Origin: Nicoliella spurrieriana
GTDB lineage: Bacteria; Bacillota; Bacilli; Lactobacillales; Lactobacillaceae
Length of the DNA stretch: 32,000 nucleotides
Assembly (NCBI RefSeq): GCF_023380205.1
Contig: NZ_CP093361.1
Coordinates: 1,298,172-1,330,171, forward strand
Direction: 5' to 3'
A program made the translations under genes and the position numbers. The notes beneath the pieces were generated by a model, which ran no database searches, had not been told where the DNA came from, and worked only from the letters and a program-made list of their open reading frames with translations. Positions 335 to 7,163 of this stretch are shown piece after piece. The number at the start of each line of letters is the position of its first letter. The stretch's first letter is position 1.

Positions 335-586
335 TTATTTTTGACCGTCTTCAATAATCAATCTAACCCGCTTATTACCATTTACCCGAACACTGTAAAC
401 GATGGTCCGGATTGTCTGAGCGATATGGCCCTTTTTACCGATAATCCGTCCTACATCCTTTGGGTTGGTCTGTAAATGATATTCATAAAACCGGTCAGTT
501 TCATTATGCTGAATAGTAACGTCATCTGGATATTCCACCAGTGGCTTAACGATTGTTTTAATTAACTTGTCAAAATTAGTCGTCAT
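335..586 (-). CDS. khpA: KH-domain RNA-binding protein (YlqC/KhpA family)
   Basis: An 83-aa ORF with the KH GXXG loop region VGRIIGKKGHIAQTIR. It sits immediately downstream of rpsP, as in Bacilli. Confidence 0.85.
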   Translation of the reverse strand: MTTNFDKLIKTIVKPLVEYPDDVTIQHNETDRFYEYHLQTNPKDVGRIIGKKGHIAQTIRTIVYSVRVNGNKRVRLIIEDGQK

Positions 587-596
587 TACTAATCAC

Positions 597-872
597 TTAT
601 TTCTTAGTAGATTTTGATTCGTGGTACTTCTTCATGATTCCTGCATTAGATAATAAATTACGAACAGTATCTGAAGGTTGTGCACCCTTACCTAACCAAC
701 TCAAGATATCGTCTTCTTCAAGCTTTACTTGTGATGGCTTAGTAAGTGGGTTATAAGTACCAACGATTTGGATGAAGCGACCATCACGAGGACTTCTTGA
801 GTCTGCGACAACGACACGGTAGAAAGGACGCTTCTTTGAACCCATTCTTCTTAAACGAATTTTAACTGACAT
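597..872 (-). CDS. rpsP: 30S ribosomal protein S16
   Basis: [35 protein letters not shown]-like sequence is the classic S16 N-terminus. ATG is at 870-872, preceded by GGAGGTG. Confidence 0.97.
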
Positions 873-906: not shown

Positions 907-935
907 AATATACCAAGATTTCGATAAGATGTAAA
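907..935 (-). promoter_or_regulatory. Candidate sigma-A promoter for rpsP-khpA
   Basis: On the minus strand: -35 TTTACA (930-935), a 17-nt spacer, and -10 TATATT (907-912) with an upstream TGG (extended -10-like). It lies about 35 nt upstream of the rpsP ATG. Confidence 0.4.
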
Positions 936-971
936 GTGTTTTTTCTTTACACCACTTATTTTTTTAAATCA

Positions 972-1265
972 TTATTCAAACGGACTGAGTAATAACTGCT
1001 TAGATTCAGCCGTTACGTAGCTATTATTGTGTAAAATAAACGCCTGAACCGACTGATAATCATTAAAATCGACCCGTGCTTTTACCATTCCAGTAGCTAA
1101 TAGTTGTTTTGCAATTCCAATCAGTTCCGGTGTGATTTGATTGGGCATAAATGGATTATCATCGTCAATATCTTGCCAACGATCCTTTAACACACCCATT
1201 GCACGCTTAATTTTTGGATCACCGTTAAATAACATTTTTAGTGTTGTTGGTTCTAATAATGGCAT
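972..1265 (-). CDS. Hypothetical small protein (97-99 aa), third gene of the AAA+/VWA cassette
   Basis: The ORF track gives 972-1271. The first ATG (1269-1271) abuts the GGGGGG run (1272-1277) with zero spacing. The second ATG (1263-1265) has 6-nt spacing and is the more plausible start. The ORF begins 6-12 nt after the VWA gene stop (1278-1280). I recognise no family, signal peptide or TM segment. An acidic patch QDIDDDNPF lies at 1149-1175. Confidence 0.6.
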   Translation of the reverse strand: MPLLEPTTLKMLFNGDPKIKRAMGVLKDRWQDIDDDNPFMPNQITPELIGIAKQLLATGMVKARVDFNDYQSVQAFILHNNSYVTAESKQLLLSPFE

Positions 1266-1277
1266 CGCCATCCCCCC

Positions 1278-2543
1278 TTAATTAATTTGACGGTCAATGG
1301 ATACCGCCGTTCCTGGGTAGTGCTCGATCAGCGAAAAATCACGTTTAGACGTCGTTAAAATCCAGACTACGTTTTTAAATCCGTAGTCATTTAATTGTTT
1401 TTCGCCCTTGCCATCAGTCATGATGATGGTTAAAGTATCAATCAACTTTGAACGATGTTGATTCAAAAAGTGAAAGATTGCTTGAAAACTAGTCCCCCCA
1501 CCACCAATCCGTTGGTAATGAAGCTGTTGTGCGTTACTAGTCAGATAGCGAGCGTTAAAGTGGACCTGCGAATCAAAACTATAAATCGTTACTTCGATGC
1601 TCTCCTGGCTTAAAAAGTGGCCAATTTCATTCAACAGGTCCGTAATTTCTGAATCGCCCATTGAACCCGAATTATCAATAAATAAATTGATACGTCTAAC
1701 GGTATCACTAACCTTCCCGGATAATTCCATCCGGTACGCCTGGCGACGGTTAAAGCGAGCTCGTGATTCAAGCCGCCCAAATGGCGTGGTTCCTAACCCC
1801 ACTTTCAATAACTGGCGCCAGTTATTAATTTTAGGCGCCATTGCAGCGGCCGTTAAATTGGCAACCACGTTGCCAGGCAGCGTCCCGCGTTGCTTATCCG
1901 GCGTTTGCTGCCAAGCAAGGTTGATTAACTGCCTTAATTTGCCTTGTTGTAACGGGCGCTCTTGGTCGCCGAATTGCTGCCATCCCGCATGGGAATCATG
2001 CTGATTAGTCTGGGCTTGAATCATTTGTCGTGCAACTGTTGCGGCCGAACGATTACCACGTGGTTTCAATTTACGGAGTTGTGTTAAATAGTAATGCGAG
2101 CCCATGTCAGCTGCTAAATCGCTACCTAACTGAAAGTTTAATTGATCCAACGTATTAGCACTTTGCCGTCCTAAATATTGATCAACTACAATATCACACG
2201 CTAATTGATTGAGTGTATCTGCCCGTGGGTACATCAATGGATGGCCGAACGAAAGATGCAGGGCCACCTGCCTTAAAATGCTATCCAATTGGTCAACGGT
2301 CAAATCCGCATTAATGAAGCGGTCGGGATTGATCAATAATTCGATTTGATGGTCAAGCCAACCAATTCCAAGCGCACCGTTAAATAACGTTGCAAAGTGT
2401 CTTGGTAATTGTAATAACACTTCTCCGTAAAAACGGCTAGTTTGCTCGATTTTGATAATCTGCCCACCCACGATGGAATCAATCAATTGCTGCTTGTTTC
2501 CAGTCGGTTCCTGCAGACGGGCCAATTGTGATGCGACGTCCAT
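1278..2543 (-). CDS. VWA (MIDAS) domain protein with a DUF2201_N-like, HExxH-less N-terminal domain
   Basis: The C-terminal half (about 1344-1694) has a complete MIDAS set: DNSGS (1662-1676), GGGGTSF (T351) and MTDG (D377). The N-terminal half resembles the putative-metallopeptidase domain that precedes VWA in DUF2201-type proteins (RFYGEVLLQL...LINPDRF...LHLSFGH...ACDIVVDQYL), as I recall that family. The start is 11 nt after the AAA+ gene stop, behind GGGGGTGG. Confidence 0.8.
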   Translation of the reverse strand: MDVASQLARLQEPTGNKQQLIDSIVGGQIIKIEQTSRFYGEVLLQLPRHFATLFNGALGIGWLDHQIELLINPDRFINADLTVDQLDSILRQVALHLSFGHPLMYPRADTLNQLACDIVVDQYLGRQSANTLDQLNFQLGSDLAADMGSHYYLTQLRKLKPRGNRSAATVARQMIQAQTNQHDSHAGWQQFGDQERPLQQGKLRQLINLAWQQTPDKQRGTLPGNVVANLTAAAMAPKINNWRQLLKVGLGTTPFGRLESRARFNRRQAYRMELSGKVSDTVRRINLFIDNSGSMGDSEITDLLNEIGHFLSQESIEVTIYSFDSQVHFNARYLTSNAQQLHYQRIGGGGTSFQAIFHFLNQHRSKLIDTLTIIMTDGKGEKQLNDYGFKNVVWILTTSKRDFSLIEHYPGTAVSIDRQIN

Positions 2544-2554
2544 TTGACCACCCC

Positions 2555-3697
2555 CTAAAGCGTATCAAACCCAATTTGTTCCAAGCGTTGATATAACGCT
2601 TTAAAGCCGGCTGTCCCATTTTGCGCGTTTTTATAAAGTGCTGCCAGTTTATTGGAATCAGTTACTAACGCTAATCCACATGCATATTGACCATCTGGAT
2701 TGATTAGTTGCAATAACTGATCCAAGCGTTCAACAAAGGGGGGCTCTAGCCCCTGATTGCGCTCTAAAGCCGCTTTAATCACGGCCACCCGGCCCACTTG
2801 GTCAAGCGCCATAAACTGTGTCCTTGCATCGGACCATTCGCTGGTAAAGACATCCCTTGAGACCACCTGTTGGTCCGCTTGATTCAAAAACGTTTGAAGG
2901 GCGACCGCTGTTTGGGTCCCGATATCACCAGCAAAAACATCCAGTTGAATTGCCTGGCGTTCACTACTGGATAACTTTAATAACTGTTGATAGTTATTGG
3001 ATAATCGTTCCCATGCCCGGGGCGTCGGAAATAAATCATCACCACTGACCTTAGTGCTCAACATCTCAGGATGCTCAGTTAGATAATCAATAATGCGGGG
3101 GTGAATCGAATGTGTAGTAGTGGCCCAATTGAGCCAGTCATTGATGTCAGTTCTCATTACTAACCTAACCGTTCGGTCCTTGATCGCATCGTCGCCACTT
3201 ACCACGTGATAATCACGATCGGCAAAGTCACTCATGGTCGCATCGGGATTTTCAGCAATAATAATGTGGACCTGTTCGGGAAGTTTTAAACTGTTGATCG
3301 ACCGCTGCAAGACTAAGTTCATTAACTCACTTTGTACGCCCTGACTCCCCCGGTTAAATTCATCCAAGAACCAATAGATTGGGACTTCGGGGTGCCGCTC
3401 TGCAAATTGAATGATTTCAATCAACTGGTGGGAATAACCAAATTGAACGTCGGCTAACTTACCATACTGCTTAGTTTGGACGAATGAATCAGCAGTGAGC
3501 GGGGGCACTGGAATTGCTAAATCCCCCTTTTCGGATAAACTAACGACGGTCGTAAACAATTTGGCATTATTTTGACGTGCTAAATCAGCCACCAATGCTG
3601 ACTTCCCAATTCCAGCATCCCCAACAATATTAGGAACGTTTCCACCGCTAATGACCACGTTTACTGCCGTTAGTAATTGTTGATAACTTAATGCCAT
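2555..3697 (-). CDS. MoxR/AAA_5-like AAA+ ATPase (single module, 380 aa)
   Basis: Walker A is GDAGIGKS (3599-3622) and Walker B is IYWFLDEF (3359-3376). A sensor-1-like IIIAEN and a MoxR-type sensor-2 PTPRAWERL are also present. A strong SD (AGGGAGGG) lies 6 nt upstream of the ATG at 3695-3697. Confidence 0.85.
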   Translation of the reverse strand: MALSYQQLLTAVNVVISGGNVPNIVGDAGIGKSALVADLARQNNAKLFTTVVSLSEKGDLAIPVPPLTADSFVQTKQYGKLADVQFGYSHQLIEIIQFAERHPEVPIYWFLDEFNRGSQGVQSELMNLVLQRSINSLKLPEQVHIIIAENPDATMSDFADRDYHVVSGDDAIKDRTVRLVMRTDINDWLNWATTTHSIHPRIIDYLTEHPEMLSTKVSGDDLFPTPRAWERLSNNYQQLLKLSSSERQAIQLDVFAGDIGTQTAVALQTFLNQADQQVVSRDVFTSEWSDARTQFMALDQVGRVAVIKAALERNQGLEPPFVERLDQLLQLINPDGQYACGLALVTDSNKLAALYKNAQNGTAGFKALYQRLEQIGFDTL

Positions 3698-3709
3698 TTC
3701 AATCCCTCC

Positions 3710-3747
3710 CTAAAATAAAATAGCCATTGCACAAAAGCGGCAATGAC
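3710..3747 (-). terminator. Weak terminator-like hairpin downstream of ffh
   Basis: A 6-bp stem (CATTGC 3725-3730 / GCAATG 3740-3745) with a 9-nt loop. On the minus strand it is followed by the T-rich ctattttatttt. The stem is short, so read-through is likely. Confidence 0.3.
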
Positions 3748-3754
3748 CATTAAA

Positions 3755-5212
3755 CTACTTCTTCCGCTTTTTATTGCGGCGTTTCTTATTCTTTTTCATC
3801 TTGCGGGCCATGCGCTTCATTGCCATGTTAGACAACTTACCACCGATGCCACCACCCATTGCGGAACCATTGACACCGATGCTATTCATCATGTTTTCCA
3901 TCCCGGCCATGTTCCCGTTTGACATCTTATTCATCATTTTCTTCATCGAATTGAACTGCTTGATCATCCGATTGACTTCTTGAATAGGTCTTGCAGAACC
4001 CCGTGCGATCCGTCTGCGTCTCGATGGATTTAAAATATCCGGATTTTCCCGTTCCTGAGCGGTCATCGAATAAATAACCGCTTCAATGTGGGCAATATCC
4101 TTAGGGTCCATATTAACGTTCTTTAATGCGGGGTTATTCGCCATCCCTGGAATCATTTTCATGATGTCTTCGAGTGGACCCATCTTTTGAATTTGTTTCA
4201 TTTGATCCAAAAAGTCATTAAAATCAAAGGTGTTCTCACGCATCTTTTCGGCCATTTCTTCAGCCTGTTTTTGATCATAATCCTTTTGGGTCTTTTCAAT
4301 TAAGGATAGAATATCCCCCATCCCTAAAATTCGTGAAGCCATTCGATCAGGATGGAAGACGTCTAAATCAGTTAATTTTTCACCCTGTCCAACGAATTTA
4401 ATTGGTTTATCGGTCACCGCCCGAATCGAAAGAGCGGCTCCACCACGGGTATCACCATCTAACTTAGTTAGGACCACTCCGGTAATGTCTAATGCGTCAT
4501 TGAACCCCTCAGCAGTTTCAACCGCATTTTGTCCGGTCATTGCATCAACGACCAATAGAATTTCATCTGGATGAACCATTTCCTGGATGTCCTTTAGTTC
4601 ATCCATCAATTTTTCATCAATTTGCAGCCGTCCAGCCGTATCAATGATCACATAATCATTATGGTCTTCCTTAGCTTGAGCCATTCCCTTTTCAACGATT
4701 TCACGGGGATCCACATCGGTCCCCATTGAAAAGACTGGCACTTCAACTTGGGCCCCGACCTGTTGCAGTTGGTCAATGGCAGCTGGCCGATAAATATCGG
4801 CTGCAATTAGCAACGGACGAGCCTTTTGTTCGTCCTTTAACTTTAATGCTAATTTCCCAGCAGTCGTCGTTTTCCCGGCCCCTTGTAGCCCCGCCATCAT
4901 AATGACGGTCGGAATCTTATCTGATTTATTGAGCGGAACCGCAGTTTCACCCATCATCTTAGTTAATTCTTCATCGACAATTTTGACGATTTGTTGGGCG
5001 GGATTTAATCCCTCTAAGACATCCGCACCCTTGGCACGTTCTTGGACCTTTTTAACGAACTTTCTAACCACACCGAAGTTAACGTCGGCTTCTAGTAGTG
5101 CCAAGCGAATTTCACGCATCGTTGCGCGAAGGTCGGACTCACTGACCTTCCCCTTCCCACGGAGATTTCGCATGGCTTTTTGGAGTCGTTCGGTCAAACC
5201 TTCAAATGCCAT
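3755..5212 (-). CDS. ffh: Signal recognition particle protein Ffh
   Basis: Shows the N/G domain motifs GLQGAGKTTT, DTAGR and TKLDGD, a Met-rich M domain, and a long basic C-terminal tail. Confidence 0.97.
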   Translation of the reverse strand: MAFEGLTERLQKAMRNLRGKGKVSESDLRATMREIRLALLEADVNFGVVRKFVKKVQERAKGADVLEGLNPAQQIVKIVDEELTKMMGETAVPLNKSDKIPTVIMMAGLQGAGKTTTAGKLALKLKDEQKARPLLIAADIYRPAAIDQLQQVGAQVEVPVFSMGTDVDPREIVEKGMAQAKEDHNDYVIIDTAGRLQIDEKLMDELKDIQEMVHPDEILLVVDAMTGQNAVETAEGFNDALDITGVVLTKLDGDTRGGAALSIRAVTDKPIKFVGQGEKLTDLDVFHPDRMASRILGMGDILSLIEKTQKDYDQKQAEEMAEKMRENTFDFNDFLDQMKQIQKMGPLEDIMKMIPGMANNPALKNVNMDPKDIAHIEAVIYSMTAQERENPDILNPSRRRRIARGSARPIQEVNRMIKQFNSMKKMMNKMSNGNMAGMENMMNSIGVNGSAMGGGIGGKLSNMAMKRMARKMKKNKKRRNKKRKK

Positions 5213-5633: not shown

Positions 5634-7163
5634 TTATTTTAACAGTCCCTTGAACAATCCATAAACAAAGTCACTGGCATCAAATGGTTGTAAATCGCCC
5701 ACCTTTTCACCCAGTCCAACGTATTTGACCGGAATGTGGAGTTCGCTTCTAATGGCTAGTACGATCCCACCCTTGGCGGTGCCGTCAAGTTTAGTTAGCG
5801 TAATTCCAGTCACGTCGGTCACCTTCTTGAATAACTTTGCTTGACTCAATGCATTTTGACCGGTCGTCGCATCTAATACCAACATCACTTCGTGGGGTGC
5901 CATTGGAATTTCACGGGTTAAAATCTTCTTCATTTTAGCCAATTCATTCATTAAATTGACCTTATTTTGCAACCGTCCAGCAGTATCGACGAACAACACA
6001 TCGTATTGTTCCTTTTTAGCCTTTTGAACCGCCTCGTAAACAACCGAAGCGGGATCACTTTTCTCGGGCCTTTTGACAATATCAACCTGATCCCGTTGTG
6101 CCCACACATCCAATTGCTGAATGGCACCGGCTCTAAACGTATCAGCAGCAGCTAATAGGACCTTTTTCCCCTGGTCACGATACAACTTTGCCATTTTCCC
6201 AATCGTAGTCGTTTTCCCAACCCCATTGACCCCCACAAAGAGGATTACGGTCGGCCCTTCCTTCGCAAAGTTAATGGTATTCTTTTCACCATTTCCGTTT
6301 TGATCATATAGCTCAATTAACTTTTGCACGACCACATTTTGAACTTCGTTCCTAGATTTAACGTTTCTTAGCTTTACCTCATCCCGTAACTCATCGGTGA
6401 GGTTTACCGCCATATCAAAGCCAACGTCAGATTCAATCAACGTATCTTCGAGGTCTTCAAAGAATTCTTCGTCTACCGACCTAAAGTTAGCAAATAATTT
6501 ATTTAATCGTTGACCAAACGAAGACCGCGACTTAGCTAAGCCGTGTTCGTATTTATTGGTTTCTTGATCTGCAGTTGGTTCTGCTGATTCTACTGCATCT
6601 GATTCCACTTCATTTGAATCATCAGTATCGGCAGCTGCTTTTGAATCACTAACGTCCGATGCTTCACTAGTGGCCGTTGGTTGCTCACTTGAAGTGGATG
6701 TCAATTCCGCCTCAACTGGGGCTTGTTCATCATGTTCTAATGACTCCTCTGCACCCGGAGTGGTCTCATTAGATTGAGTCTCTTGGCTGGTCTCTGATGA
6801 AGCAGAAACGTCATTCCTTGCAGAATCAACATTCGATCGTTCAATCGAAGCGGACTGCTTTGATTCCTCACTTGCTTCAGACTCCACCGCGTCAGTCGTC
6901 GTTGATGATTCAGCATCTGATTCACTTACAGCACTAGTTGCTTCCGCAGATTCAACCCCTGTTTCACTAGCTGAGGTCGCTTCAGATTGTTCCACACTCA
7001 CTTTTGCATGGGCTTGGTCAATAACGTTACTTTCACTATTGGGTAGAGTGTCATTACCCGATTCACTTGCACTACCAGTATGGTCAGCTCCAGTGGATGC
7101 TGGTGCTGGTGATTGCGATTGCTTCTTTTTGTTCCGTCGTTTGAAAATGTCAAATAATCCCAT
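5634..7163 (-). CDS. ftsY: SRP receptor FtsY with a long acidic low-complexity N-terminal extension
   Basis: The C-terminal NG domain has GVNGVGKTTT, DTAGR and TKLDGT. Roughly the first 200 residues are S/E/T/A/D-rich. Confidence 0.95.
   Translation of the reverse strand: MGLFDIFKRRNKKKQSQSPAPASTGADHTGSASESGNDTLPNSESNVIDQAHAKVSVEQSEATSASETGVESAEATSAVSESDAESSTTTDAVESEASEESKQSASIERSNVDSARNDVSASSETSQETQSNETTPGAEESLEHDEQAPVEAELTSTSSEQPTATSEASDVSDSKAAADTDDSNEVESDAVESAEPTADQETNKYEHGLAKSRSSFGQRLNKLFANFRSVDEEFFEDLEDTLIESDVGFDMAVNLTDELRDEVKLRNVKSRNEVQNVVVQKLIELYDQNGNGEKNTINFAKEGPTVILFVGVNGVGKTTTIGKMAKLYRDQGKKVLLAAADTFRAGAIQQLDVWAQRDQVDIVKRPEKSDPASVVYEAVQKAKKEQYDVLFVDTAGRLQNKVNLMNELAKMKKILTREIPMAPHEVMLVLDATTGQNALSQAKLFKKVTDVTGITLTKLDGTAKGGIVLAIRSELHIPVKYVGLGEKVGDLQPFDASDFVYGLFKGLLK

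Follow-up and report, generated by a model that had tools for sequence, protein, structure and literature searches.

A stretch of 32,000 nucleotides (nt) of the Nicoliella spurrieriana chromosome, hereafter the window, includes three co-oriented genes on the minus strand (972-3697) that code for an AAA+ ATPase, a protein with a VWA domain, and a small protein. These genes, which we refer to as the triad, lie between ffh and rpsP and had been singled out in an original prediction made from the nucleotide sequence alone. In the order of transcription, the components of the triad are:

2555-3697, minus strand: AAA+ ATPase gene, 380 amino acids (aa); single module, MoxR-like, of the N4 gp24 / PHROG 1297 type
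1278-2543, minus strand: VWA (DUF2201) gene, 421 aa; degenerate zincin-like domain, linker, and VWA domain with an intact metal ion-dependent adhesion site (MIDAS)
972-1265, minus strand (972-1271 as the listed open reading frame, ORF): small gene, 97 aa (99 aa if the ATG at 1271 is used)

The gap between the AAA+ and VWA genes is 11 nt and, as read from the sequence, holds a GGGGGTGG Shine-Dalgarno (SD) motif. The VWA gene is followed after 6 nt by the ATG at 1271 and after 12 nt by the ATG at 1265. A G-run located directly 3′ of the VWA stop codon abuts the first of these start codons and lies 6 nt ahead of the second. The ORF list and the sequence confirm the original prediction of three co-oriented genes with short gaps, coupled as one unit, and the tight or overlapping junctions are kept in other species. 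The length of 99 aa first proposed for the small protein was revised: all of its homologues, as well as the NCBI call, begin at the second ATG (1265), and the protein is therefore most likely 97 aa long. The 421-aa and 97-aa products share 100% identity with N. spurrieriana proteins.

The three genes were compared with those of "Lactobacillus sp. Sy-1" and N. lavandulae. In all three, the proportion of nonsynonymous differences (pN, 0.19-0.33) was well below that of synonymous differences (pS, 0.60-0.85), and therefore the genes are under purifying selection and are real rather than chance ORFs. Three antisense ORFs on the plus strand (1455-1613, 1597-2004, and 2857-3048) were set aside, as they lie inside conserved genes. 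The identity between the N. spurrieriana and Sy-1 proteins is 95% for Ffh and 100% for RpsP, and it is 72% for the ATPase, 59% for the VWA protein, and 68% for the small protein. The nonsynonymous substitution rate (dN) of the triad was 0.22-0.33 versus 0.029 for the flanking ffh, i.e., a 7-10 times faster amino acid evolution. GC content ranges from 0.35 to 0.49 in the insert and from 0.35 to 0.48 in the genes on either side; the two ranges overlap, and no clear foreign GC signature was found across the insert.

The ATPase, the VWA protein and the small protein

The motifs of the window ATPase stand in AAA+ order: Walker A (G26-S33, GDAGIGKS), Walker B (L111-F114, LDEF), sensor-1 (N150), D174-R175, and sensor-2 (P224-W229, PTPRAW, with R227). 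All of them are invariant in an alignment of 15 Lactobacillaceae homologues, including the Walker A, Walker B, and sensor-2 motifs that the original prediction had quoted. PHROG 1297, labeled "ATPase", matches residues 3-313 at 7.9e-41. In Pfam/NCBIfam scans the protein reached 24.4 bits against AAA_16, a sub-threshold match centered on the P-loop. AAA_5 was matched at E<0.1 by 12 of the 12 family members scanned, with a best value of 4.7e-7, and a distant cellular relative (locus L018), which aligns with the window ATPase at 26% identity (E 4e-15), passes AAA_3 (PF07726, MoxR) with 28.6 bits against a cut-off of 27. The AlphaFold2 (AF2) model has a mean predicted local distance difference test score (pLDDT) of 72.6 and shows the AAA+ α/β core, the lid, and a well-predicted all-helical C-terminal domain of about 140 aa. 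When this model was compared with the PDB using Foldseek, the best matches were all AAA+ proteins; MgsA came first, and the NorQ hexamer 9qh4 (2026; E 9e-4, probability 0.99), dynein, and CbbQ2 were among the best, with low TM-scores of about 0.22. The prediction of a single-module, MoxR-like AAA+ ATPase was accepted, strict membership in the MoxR class being only tentative for the window protein taken by itself.

The second protein matched PF09967 (DUF2201, VWA-like) with 35.5 bits, above the cut-off of 26.4, and PHROG 1314 over residues 32-401 (4.5e-35). Its VWA domain is C-terminal (aa ~283-405, nt ~1329-1697), and a search of the PDB with the VWA profile returned generic VWA domains only (Sulfolobus VWA2, 5a8j, E 5e-4). 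The five MIDAS residues, D290, S292, S294, T351, and D377, are invariant in every aligned sequence, including those of phage AR9 and of the distant cellular relative, and the anticipated VWA protein with a complete MIDAS was thus found. The DUF2201 match had been expected together with a DUF2201_N match, and this second half did not materialize: PF13203 (DUF2201_N) has no match in the window protein because its zincin motif is degenerate, reading QVALH instead of HExxH (aa 92-96, nt ~2256-2270), with both the first His and the Glu replaced. Relatives at 35-41% identity carry PF13203 and PF09967, and the N-terminal region of the window protein aligns with them along its whole length, which argues that this domain is homologous to DUF2201_N, yet degenerate. 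The state of the HExxH motif in the proteins compared was as follows:

Nicoliella, three species including the window: QVALH / QLALH / QLVLH
Acetilactobacillus: HEALH, intact
Limosilactobacillus: HEALH / HEVLH, intact
Philodulcilactobacillus: HVALH, Glu lost
Levilactobacillus bambusae: HLVLH, Glu lost
Lactiplantibacillus pentosus: HVALH, Glu lost
Weissella cibaria: HQVLH, Glu lost
Leuconostoc fallax: HVALH, Glu lost
phage AR9: HELLH, intact
phage JWAlpha: HEIWH, intact
distant SNF2-linked relatives: HEVMH / HEVLH, intact

The catalytic Glu is gone in six of the eight Lactobacillaceae lineages, while the MIDAS stays invariant. With neither the first zinc-binding His nor the catalytic Glu in place, the window protein is a pseudo-peptidase; it belongs to the family by descent, and the name "peptidase" does not suit it. 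Lineages that keep or lose the Glu amount to natural "mutants", and their comparison indicates that across the family proteolysis is dispensable and the MIDAS is not. Just ahead of the VWA domain lies an Arg-rich linker, SRARFNRRQAYRM (RFNRRQ; aa ~259-272, window ~1728-1769, minus strand), which is highly conserved in Lactobacillaceae. R266, R267, and R271 are invariant in the alignment, and the RR pair is retained in phage AR9 and in the L018 relative. The linker could serve to contact the ATPase, or it could be where the protein is processed.

The small protein had no match in Pfam, NCBIfam, PHROG, or PADLOC, as the original prediction had allowed for. A word-based search recovered two proteins only and a profile search 52 clusters, and an exhaustive search of 1.84 billion representative proteins with a hidden Markov model (HMM) gave 40 matches at E<=1e-3, of which 38 were not longer than 113 aa. 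Two giant proteins among the HMM matches, P0138 and P0140, were put down to repeats or low complexity and dropped; in P0138, which is eukaryote-like and rich in Asn, the repeats fit one helix only. Every named source belongs to the Lactobacillaceae: Nicoliella, Acetilactobacillus, Philodulcilactobacillus, Limosilactobacillus, Levilactobacillus bambusae, Secundilactobacillus paracollinoides, Lactiplantibacillus pentosus, Eupransor, Leuconostoc fallax, and Weissella cibaria. A gene of 95-99 aa follows the pair directly in every Lactobacillaceae locus read, its products being 27-68% identical to one another and sharing a conserved C-terminal LLxPF motif. The small gene was immediately downstream of the pair in all 15 of the Lactobacillaceae loci inspected. 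In these loci the triad stays together, and the protein that at first could not be placed in any family belongs to a conserved one, limited to Lactobacillaceae as far as its sources are named. The family HMM detected one copy after the pair per Lactobacillaceae locus, but two tandem copies in W. cibaria, and had no match in the phage, plasmid, viral-contig, and distant cellular loci inspected.

The AF2 model of the small protein has six helices, a pLDDT of 89.7, and a predicted TM-score (pTM) of 0.80. Foldseek found no match for it in the PDB (best E 4) or BFVD (best E 2). From its sequence the protein is soluble, and the isoelectric point varies among homologues. The C-terminal PF(E/D) was considered as an HbYX-like docking motif and was not relied on because the aromatic residue sits at position -2 or -3 from the C-terminus. 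Two loci carry additional genes. In W. cibaria (L014, 6001-6580) the two tandem small-protein paralogues overlap and have 95 and 101 aa, and in L. fallax (L016, 6297-6812) the small gene is followed by an extra gene of 171 aa with a weak match to DUF4286 (E 0.03).

Genomic contexts and expression signals

The triad was found in at least five genomic contexts:

ffh-[triad]-rpsP: three Nicoliella species, Acetilactobacillus jinshanensis, Philodulcilactobacillus myokoensis, and Levilactobacillus bambusae
3-methyladenine glycosylase-[triad]-PepO: Limosilactobacillus
between a divergent MIP-family (glpF-like) channel gene and a TetR gene: Lactiplantibacillus pentosus
after an M20 peptidase gene (M20 peptidase / DUF454 context): Weissella cibaria
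upp-[triad]-171-aa gene-tgt: Leuconostoc fallax

In the five neighborhoods, all of them housekeeping loci, no integrase, transposase, or defense genes flank the triad, and no nor, cbb, cox, cob, or ldc/frd client genes were found. The distribution among Lactobacillaceae species is patchy. Within species the genes appear to be stable and not strain-variable: 913 contigs were seen to carry the W. cibaria small protein, and 606 members make up the AAA cluster of Limosilactobacillus mucosae.

Judged by its place between ffh and rpsP-khpA-rimM-trmD, the triad could act as a maturation or quality-control factor for the signal recognition particle (SRP) or the ribosome. The order ffh-[triad]-rpsP is kept in four genera (Nicoliella, Acetilactobacillus, Philodulcilactobacillus, and Levilactobacillus, the last represented by L. 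bambusae), transcription is probably from the ylxM-ffh unit, and in L. fallax the triad lies among prfA-prmC-sua5-upp and tgt. In addition, the eukaryotic MoxR-like midasin uses its MIDAS domain in ribosome assembly, according to the passage of PMC7159879 that cites this work. However, the triad has unrelated contexts in Limosilactobacillus, L. pentosus, and W. cibaria, and the ffh|rpsP junction can hold other genes. Among 75 metagenomic loci having both ffh and rpsP, 74 lack a comparably large insert, the two genes being directly adjacent in most of them. The exception is a metagenomic Lactobacillaceae contig (L023, 6438-9688; its Ffh is 77-80% identical to that of the window), in which pntAA-pntAB-pntB, encoding the proton-translocating transhydrogenase, occupy exactly this junction, likewise downstream of the ffh terminator and ahead of the rpsP promoter, which is conserved there. 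The triad was present at none of 80 metagenomic ffh loci. It follows from these counts that SRP and ribosomes are not generally dependent on the triad, and we regard a role in their maturation as very improbable. The original prediction had treated the location as a notable feature. In view of the five contexts and of the pntAB cassette at the same junction, the location is not a clue to function; ffh|rpsP looks like a recurrent, permissive insertion point at which the position of the triad is incidental and carries little functional information. A false lead is thereby removed, since the ffh-rpsP position implies no SRP or ribosome function.

The genes and signals that flank the triad in the window are:

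3755-5212, minus strand: ffh, 485 aa (ORF list)
3712-3751, minus strand: ffh intrinsic terminator (hairpin ~3719-3751, T-rich tract ~3712-3722), from RNA folding and a six-genome alignment
907-950, minus strand: rpsP promoter (site 935-907), TTTACA-17-TG-n-TATATT, 10/12 with extended -10
597-872, minus strand: rpsP, 91 aa (ORF list)
335-586, minus strand: khpA, 83 aa (ORF list)

The ffh terminator folds with -16.2 kcal/mol (z -2.55). A hairpin and T-run are found at the same place, immediately behind the stop codon of ffh, in all six genomes with the ffh context (window, L001, L002, L004, L007, and L011), and their stems differ between species yet stay paired through compensatory changes. The SD of the AAA gene, AGGGAGGG (~3704-3711), lies directly downstream of this terminator. 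Only about 15 nt separate the T-run from the AAA start codon, leaving no room for a promoter of the triad's own, and no promoter-like site was found in this interval. Of the promoter-like sites in the region, that of rpsP is the best; it marks the downstream edge of the insert and lies outside the triad. The location between the ffh terminator and the rpsP promoter, together with the lack of a promoter of its own, makes it probable that the triad is transcribed at a low level from ylxM-ffh by read-through of the terminator.

Across the same six genomes, which represent four genera, the sequence around the rpsP promoter, GGTGTAAAGAAAAAA-NN-CTTTACAT, hardly varies. It includes an inverted repeat, TGTAAAG/CTTTACA, that overlaps the -35 element and is followed by TGnTATATT. 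As this conservation far exceeds the need of a promoter alone, the region may act on the rpsP operon as an operator or as an RNA element. A DNA-pattern scan of metagenomes for the rpsP promoter motif found nothing. Farther upstream, FtsY (window 5634-7163, minus strand; L001 1343-2905) carries at its N-terminus about 200 aa of low-complexity sequence in which Ser, Glu, Ala, and Thr abound. This extension differs strongly between sister species; the Sy-1 version consists of near-perfect tandem repeats (SSNASSESASSAEASSEASAESDEAT).

Relatives outside the Lactobacillaceae

Relatives were compared by means of HMMs built from the Lactobacillaceae proteins, PHROG profiles, and pairwise alignments. 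The AAA+/VWA pair, without the small protein, occurs in N4-like phages, Firmicutes jumbo phages, plasmids, and distant metagenomic cellular loci, and a scan of viral contigs with the AAA alignment gave one distant viral contig. The core set of 14 genes in N4-like phages includes N4 gp24 and gp25, which are middle genes with no function assigned (PMC4193335). JWAlpha gp33 and gp36 are annotated as similar to them. Like the triad, N4 and JWAlpha have members of the PHROG 1297 and PHROG 1314 families (7.9e-41 and 4.5e-35 for the window proteins), with the AAA gene before the VWA gene. The Lactobacillaceae HMMs recover gp33 (5.5e-15) and gp36 (1.6e-26), and gp36 has the MIDAS DxSxS. In contrast to the triad, JWAlpha has the intact HEIWH, its pair is split by two small unrelated genes, it has no homologue of the 97-aa protein, and identities are 21-25%.

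The closest relatives outside the Lactobacillaceae are g028 and g029 of phage AR9 (g028, 29% identity over 308 columns, E 1e-34; VWA protein, 28%, E 7e-22). The two genes are adjacent and co-oriented and have the same architecture as in the triad, from which they differ by the intact HELLH, the lack of a small-subunit homologue, and an annotated early phage promoter ahead of the pair. For the jumbo-phage pair (AR9, PBS1, and Staphylococcus and Listeria phages), Iyer et al. (2021) described a MoxR-vWA chaperone/co-chaperone to which a metallopeptidase is fused, and they suggested a role in virion assembly and processing (PMC7824862). Early or middle timing in the phage cycle fits this proposal poorly. 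RefSeq phage records name the zincin-VWA protein "HNH endonuclease" or "homing endonuclease", the label of PHROG 1314 is "HNH endonuclease", and GenBank depositors wrote "zincin-like protease fused to vWA domain". Neither the domain content (PF13203 and PF09967) nor the depositors' annotation gives a nuclease; the label is evidently wrong, and the RefSeq records appear to have inherited it from PHROG 1314.

A relative was present in 54 plasmid records, of which 29 were conjugative. The modules of Burkholderia ambifaria pBMC401 (conjugative; L022, 6001-9263) and Arcobacter p82 (typed non-mobilizable; L021, 2862-6106) resemble the triad in their matches to the AAA HMM (4e-19 to 5.6e-30) and the VWA HMM (8e-23 to 3e-50) and in the order AAA before VWA. 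They differ in having a gene of about 310 aa between the members of the pair and no homologue of the small subunit. The pBMC401 module has a PRTRC (ParB/ThiF-related) cassette on one side and a type IV secretion system of the VirB type on the other. Two distant cellular loci (L018, 2589-8170, and L019, 2696-8197) are operons of an SNF2 helicase of about 1,100 aa, an AAA gene (AAA_3), and a DUF2201 gene, at about 25% identity, with an intact HExxH and no small protein. Around the L019 operon, PHP and RNase_T genes and numerous small ORFs give the appearance of a replication module from a mobile element.

A rival explanation is that the triad is an anti-phage or anti-plasmid module whose AAA+/VWA pair would detect or capture a protein of the invader, with the small protein as a sensor, decoy, or effector. 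MoxR-vWA ternary conflict systems were put forward on comparative-genomic grounds (PMC7159879). The relatives of the triad are concentrated on phages and plasmids, more than half of the plasmid matches are conjugative, and in the distant SNF2-linked operons the helicase region matches DrmD, BrxH, and ZorD models; the patchy distribution among species and the rapid amino acid evolution point in the same direction. However, no model in PADLOC-DB v2, candidate systems included, matches any of the AAA and VWA members tested (window, Limosilactobacillus, and L018); the window ATPase gave P-loop-level Avs2 matches only (E 0.007), and the VWA and small proteins gave nothing. The genes appear stable within species, and the five neighborhoods have no defense, integrase, or transposase genes next to the triad. 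There is also no recognizable effector (nuclease, pore, or NADase), the sole enzymatic candidate, the zincin, being dead here. The defense role suggested by the original prediction has no positive support from PADLOC or the neighborhoods, and we hold it to be improbable.

Neighboring genes suggest another function, in which the triad clears DNA-bound proteins or nucleoprotein complexes in the manner of the zincin protease Wss1/SPRTN with the AAA+ protein Cdc48/p97. Besides the SNF2 helicase-AAA-DUF2201 operons of the distant cellular relatives, the Limosilactobacillus triad begins 5 nt after the 3-methyladenine DNA glycosylase gene; the N4-like pair belongs to the middle genes and has dCTP deaminase and further genes of nucleotide metabolism as neighbors; and the AR9 pair, after its early promoter, is beside gyrase B and a DNA-binding protein. 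This support is purely neighborhood-based and comes mostly from distant relatives. Moreover, Pfam/NCBIfam scans detected no DNA-binding domain in any of the three proteins, and the peptidase that such a role requires is inactive in most Lactobacillaceae copies. A DNA-clearing role therefore seems unlikely, if slightly less so than defense. Overall, the neighborhoods weakly favor nucleic acid transactions and, more weakly still, translation or SRP.

Proposed mechanism and comparison with known systems

The explanation that we favor, with moderate confidence, is that the triad is a chromosomal form, maintained by vertical descent, of an AAA+/zincin-VWA pair that elsewhere is typical of phages and plasmids, and to which a Lactobacillaceae-specific 97-aa helical subunit has been added, and that the three proteins constitute an ATP-driven, MIDAS-dependent remodeling complex. 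The model of a ring with a MIDAS adaptor was adopted because characterized MoxR-VWA pairs work in this way. In NorQD, the pore of NorQ takes up a finger of the VWA domain, and NorD is remodeled at the expense of ATP so that it acts on its client (PMC13036017). By analogy, the window ATPase would form a MoxR-like ring on which the DUF2201 protein would dock through its VWA domain, as NorD does on NorQ. The invariant MIDAS would grip an acidic group on a presumed client protein or on the small subunit. Without its first zinc-binding His and Glu, the zincin-like domain would not cleave and may at most bind a peptide. ATP hydrolysis would then remodel, extract, or release the bound protein. The small protein would be an obligatory stoichiometric partner, either an adaptor or regulator or the client itself.

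Several points weigh against this explanation. The AAA_5 or MoxR profile matches expected for the ATPase were obtained with the family members and the L018 relative described above, but the window protein itself reached neither the AAA_5 nor the AAA_3 cut-off of Pfam, scoring 17.4 bits against AAA_5 (PF07728; cut-off 22) with only the P-loop aligned. Its AF2 model is mediocre (pLDDT 72.6; TM-score of about 0.22 to NorQ), and searches of the PDB with the single ATPase sequence or the family profile were discarded, since they returned spurious or P-loop matches only. The identities of the AAA proteins between lineages are all about 50%, so the direction of transfer between mobile elements and Lactobacillaceae cannot be read from them. 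Read-through expression is deduced from the nucleotide sequence, the remodeling activity is argued by analogy, and the physical complex of the three proteins is a proposal. In the searchable literature, no functional or experimental study of any member of the pair was found.

A more speculative explanation is that a module with which a mobile element takes over its host was captured and repurposed. In this case the dead zincin would act as a substrate trap and, together with the AAA+ ring and the small subunit, would operate as a family-specific extraction or quality-control machine or as a decoy-type system against mobile elements. We consider this unlikely, on a par with the clearing of DNA-bound proteins. 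Whichever explanation applies, the AAA+/zincin-VWA pair of mobile elements is already known as a type, with its function unexplored. The original prediction that no characterized pair has this architecture stood in that no experimentally characterized homologue was found; the architecture itself is known from Pfam (DUF2201_N and DUF2201), N4 gp24/gp25, and jumbo phages. The new elements are the small-subunit family, found only in Lactobacillaceae and for which Foldseek detected no relative in fold; the recurrent loss of the catalytic Glu alongside an invariant MIDAS; and the ffh|rpsP slot between terminator and promoter that hosts pntAB elsewhere.

The remodeling-complex explanation bears on a pair that is among the few core gene pairs of N4-like phages and widespread in jumbo phages and plasmids, where its role is unexplained. 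In Lactobacillaceae the pair can be approached through a chromosomal copy that is stable within species, in hosts that are nonpathogenic and genetically tractable: Lactiplantibacillus pentosus, Limosilactobacillus mucosae, and Weissella cibaria. Its 97-aa partner combines an unannotated family and a confident predicted structure with no detected relative in fold, and the binding partner of this small protein would probably reveal the class of clients for the whole family of pairs, the phage versions included.

Three groups of known systems were compared with the triad. The vWA-MoxR-VMAP systems (Kaur et al. 2020, PMC7159879) have VMAP as the third component and effector domains fused to vWA. 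The triad looks unlike this description: its third gene encodes a 97-aa helical protein without a Pfam match and its vWA protein bears only a dead zincin. Wss1/SPRTN with Cdc48/p97 is a functional analogy only. Both systems couple a zincin-type domain to an AAA+ remodeler, but no homology between them is established, the zincin of the triad is dead, and no DNA-binding domain was detected. NorQ-NorD, CbbQ-CbbO, and RavA-ViaA have, like the triad, a single-module AAA+ protein and an adjacent VWA/MIDAS partner, and NorQ and CbbQ2 were among the best structural matches of the ATPase. Unlike in these pairs, no significant sequence match links the triad to them and no nor, cbb, or ldc/frd genes are nearby; what the triad has in addition is a zincin-like domain, a third, small subunit, and a helical C-terminal domain of about 140 aa in the ATPase.

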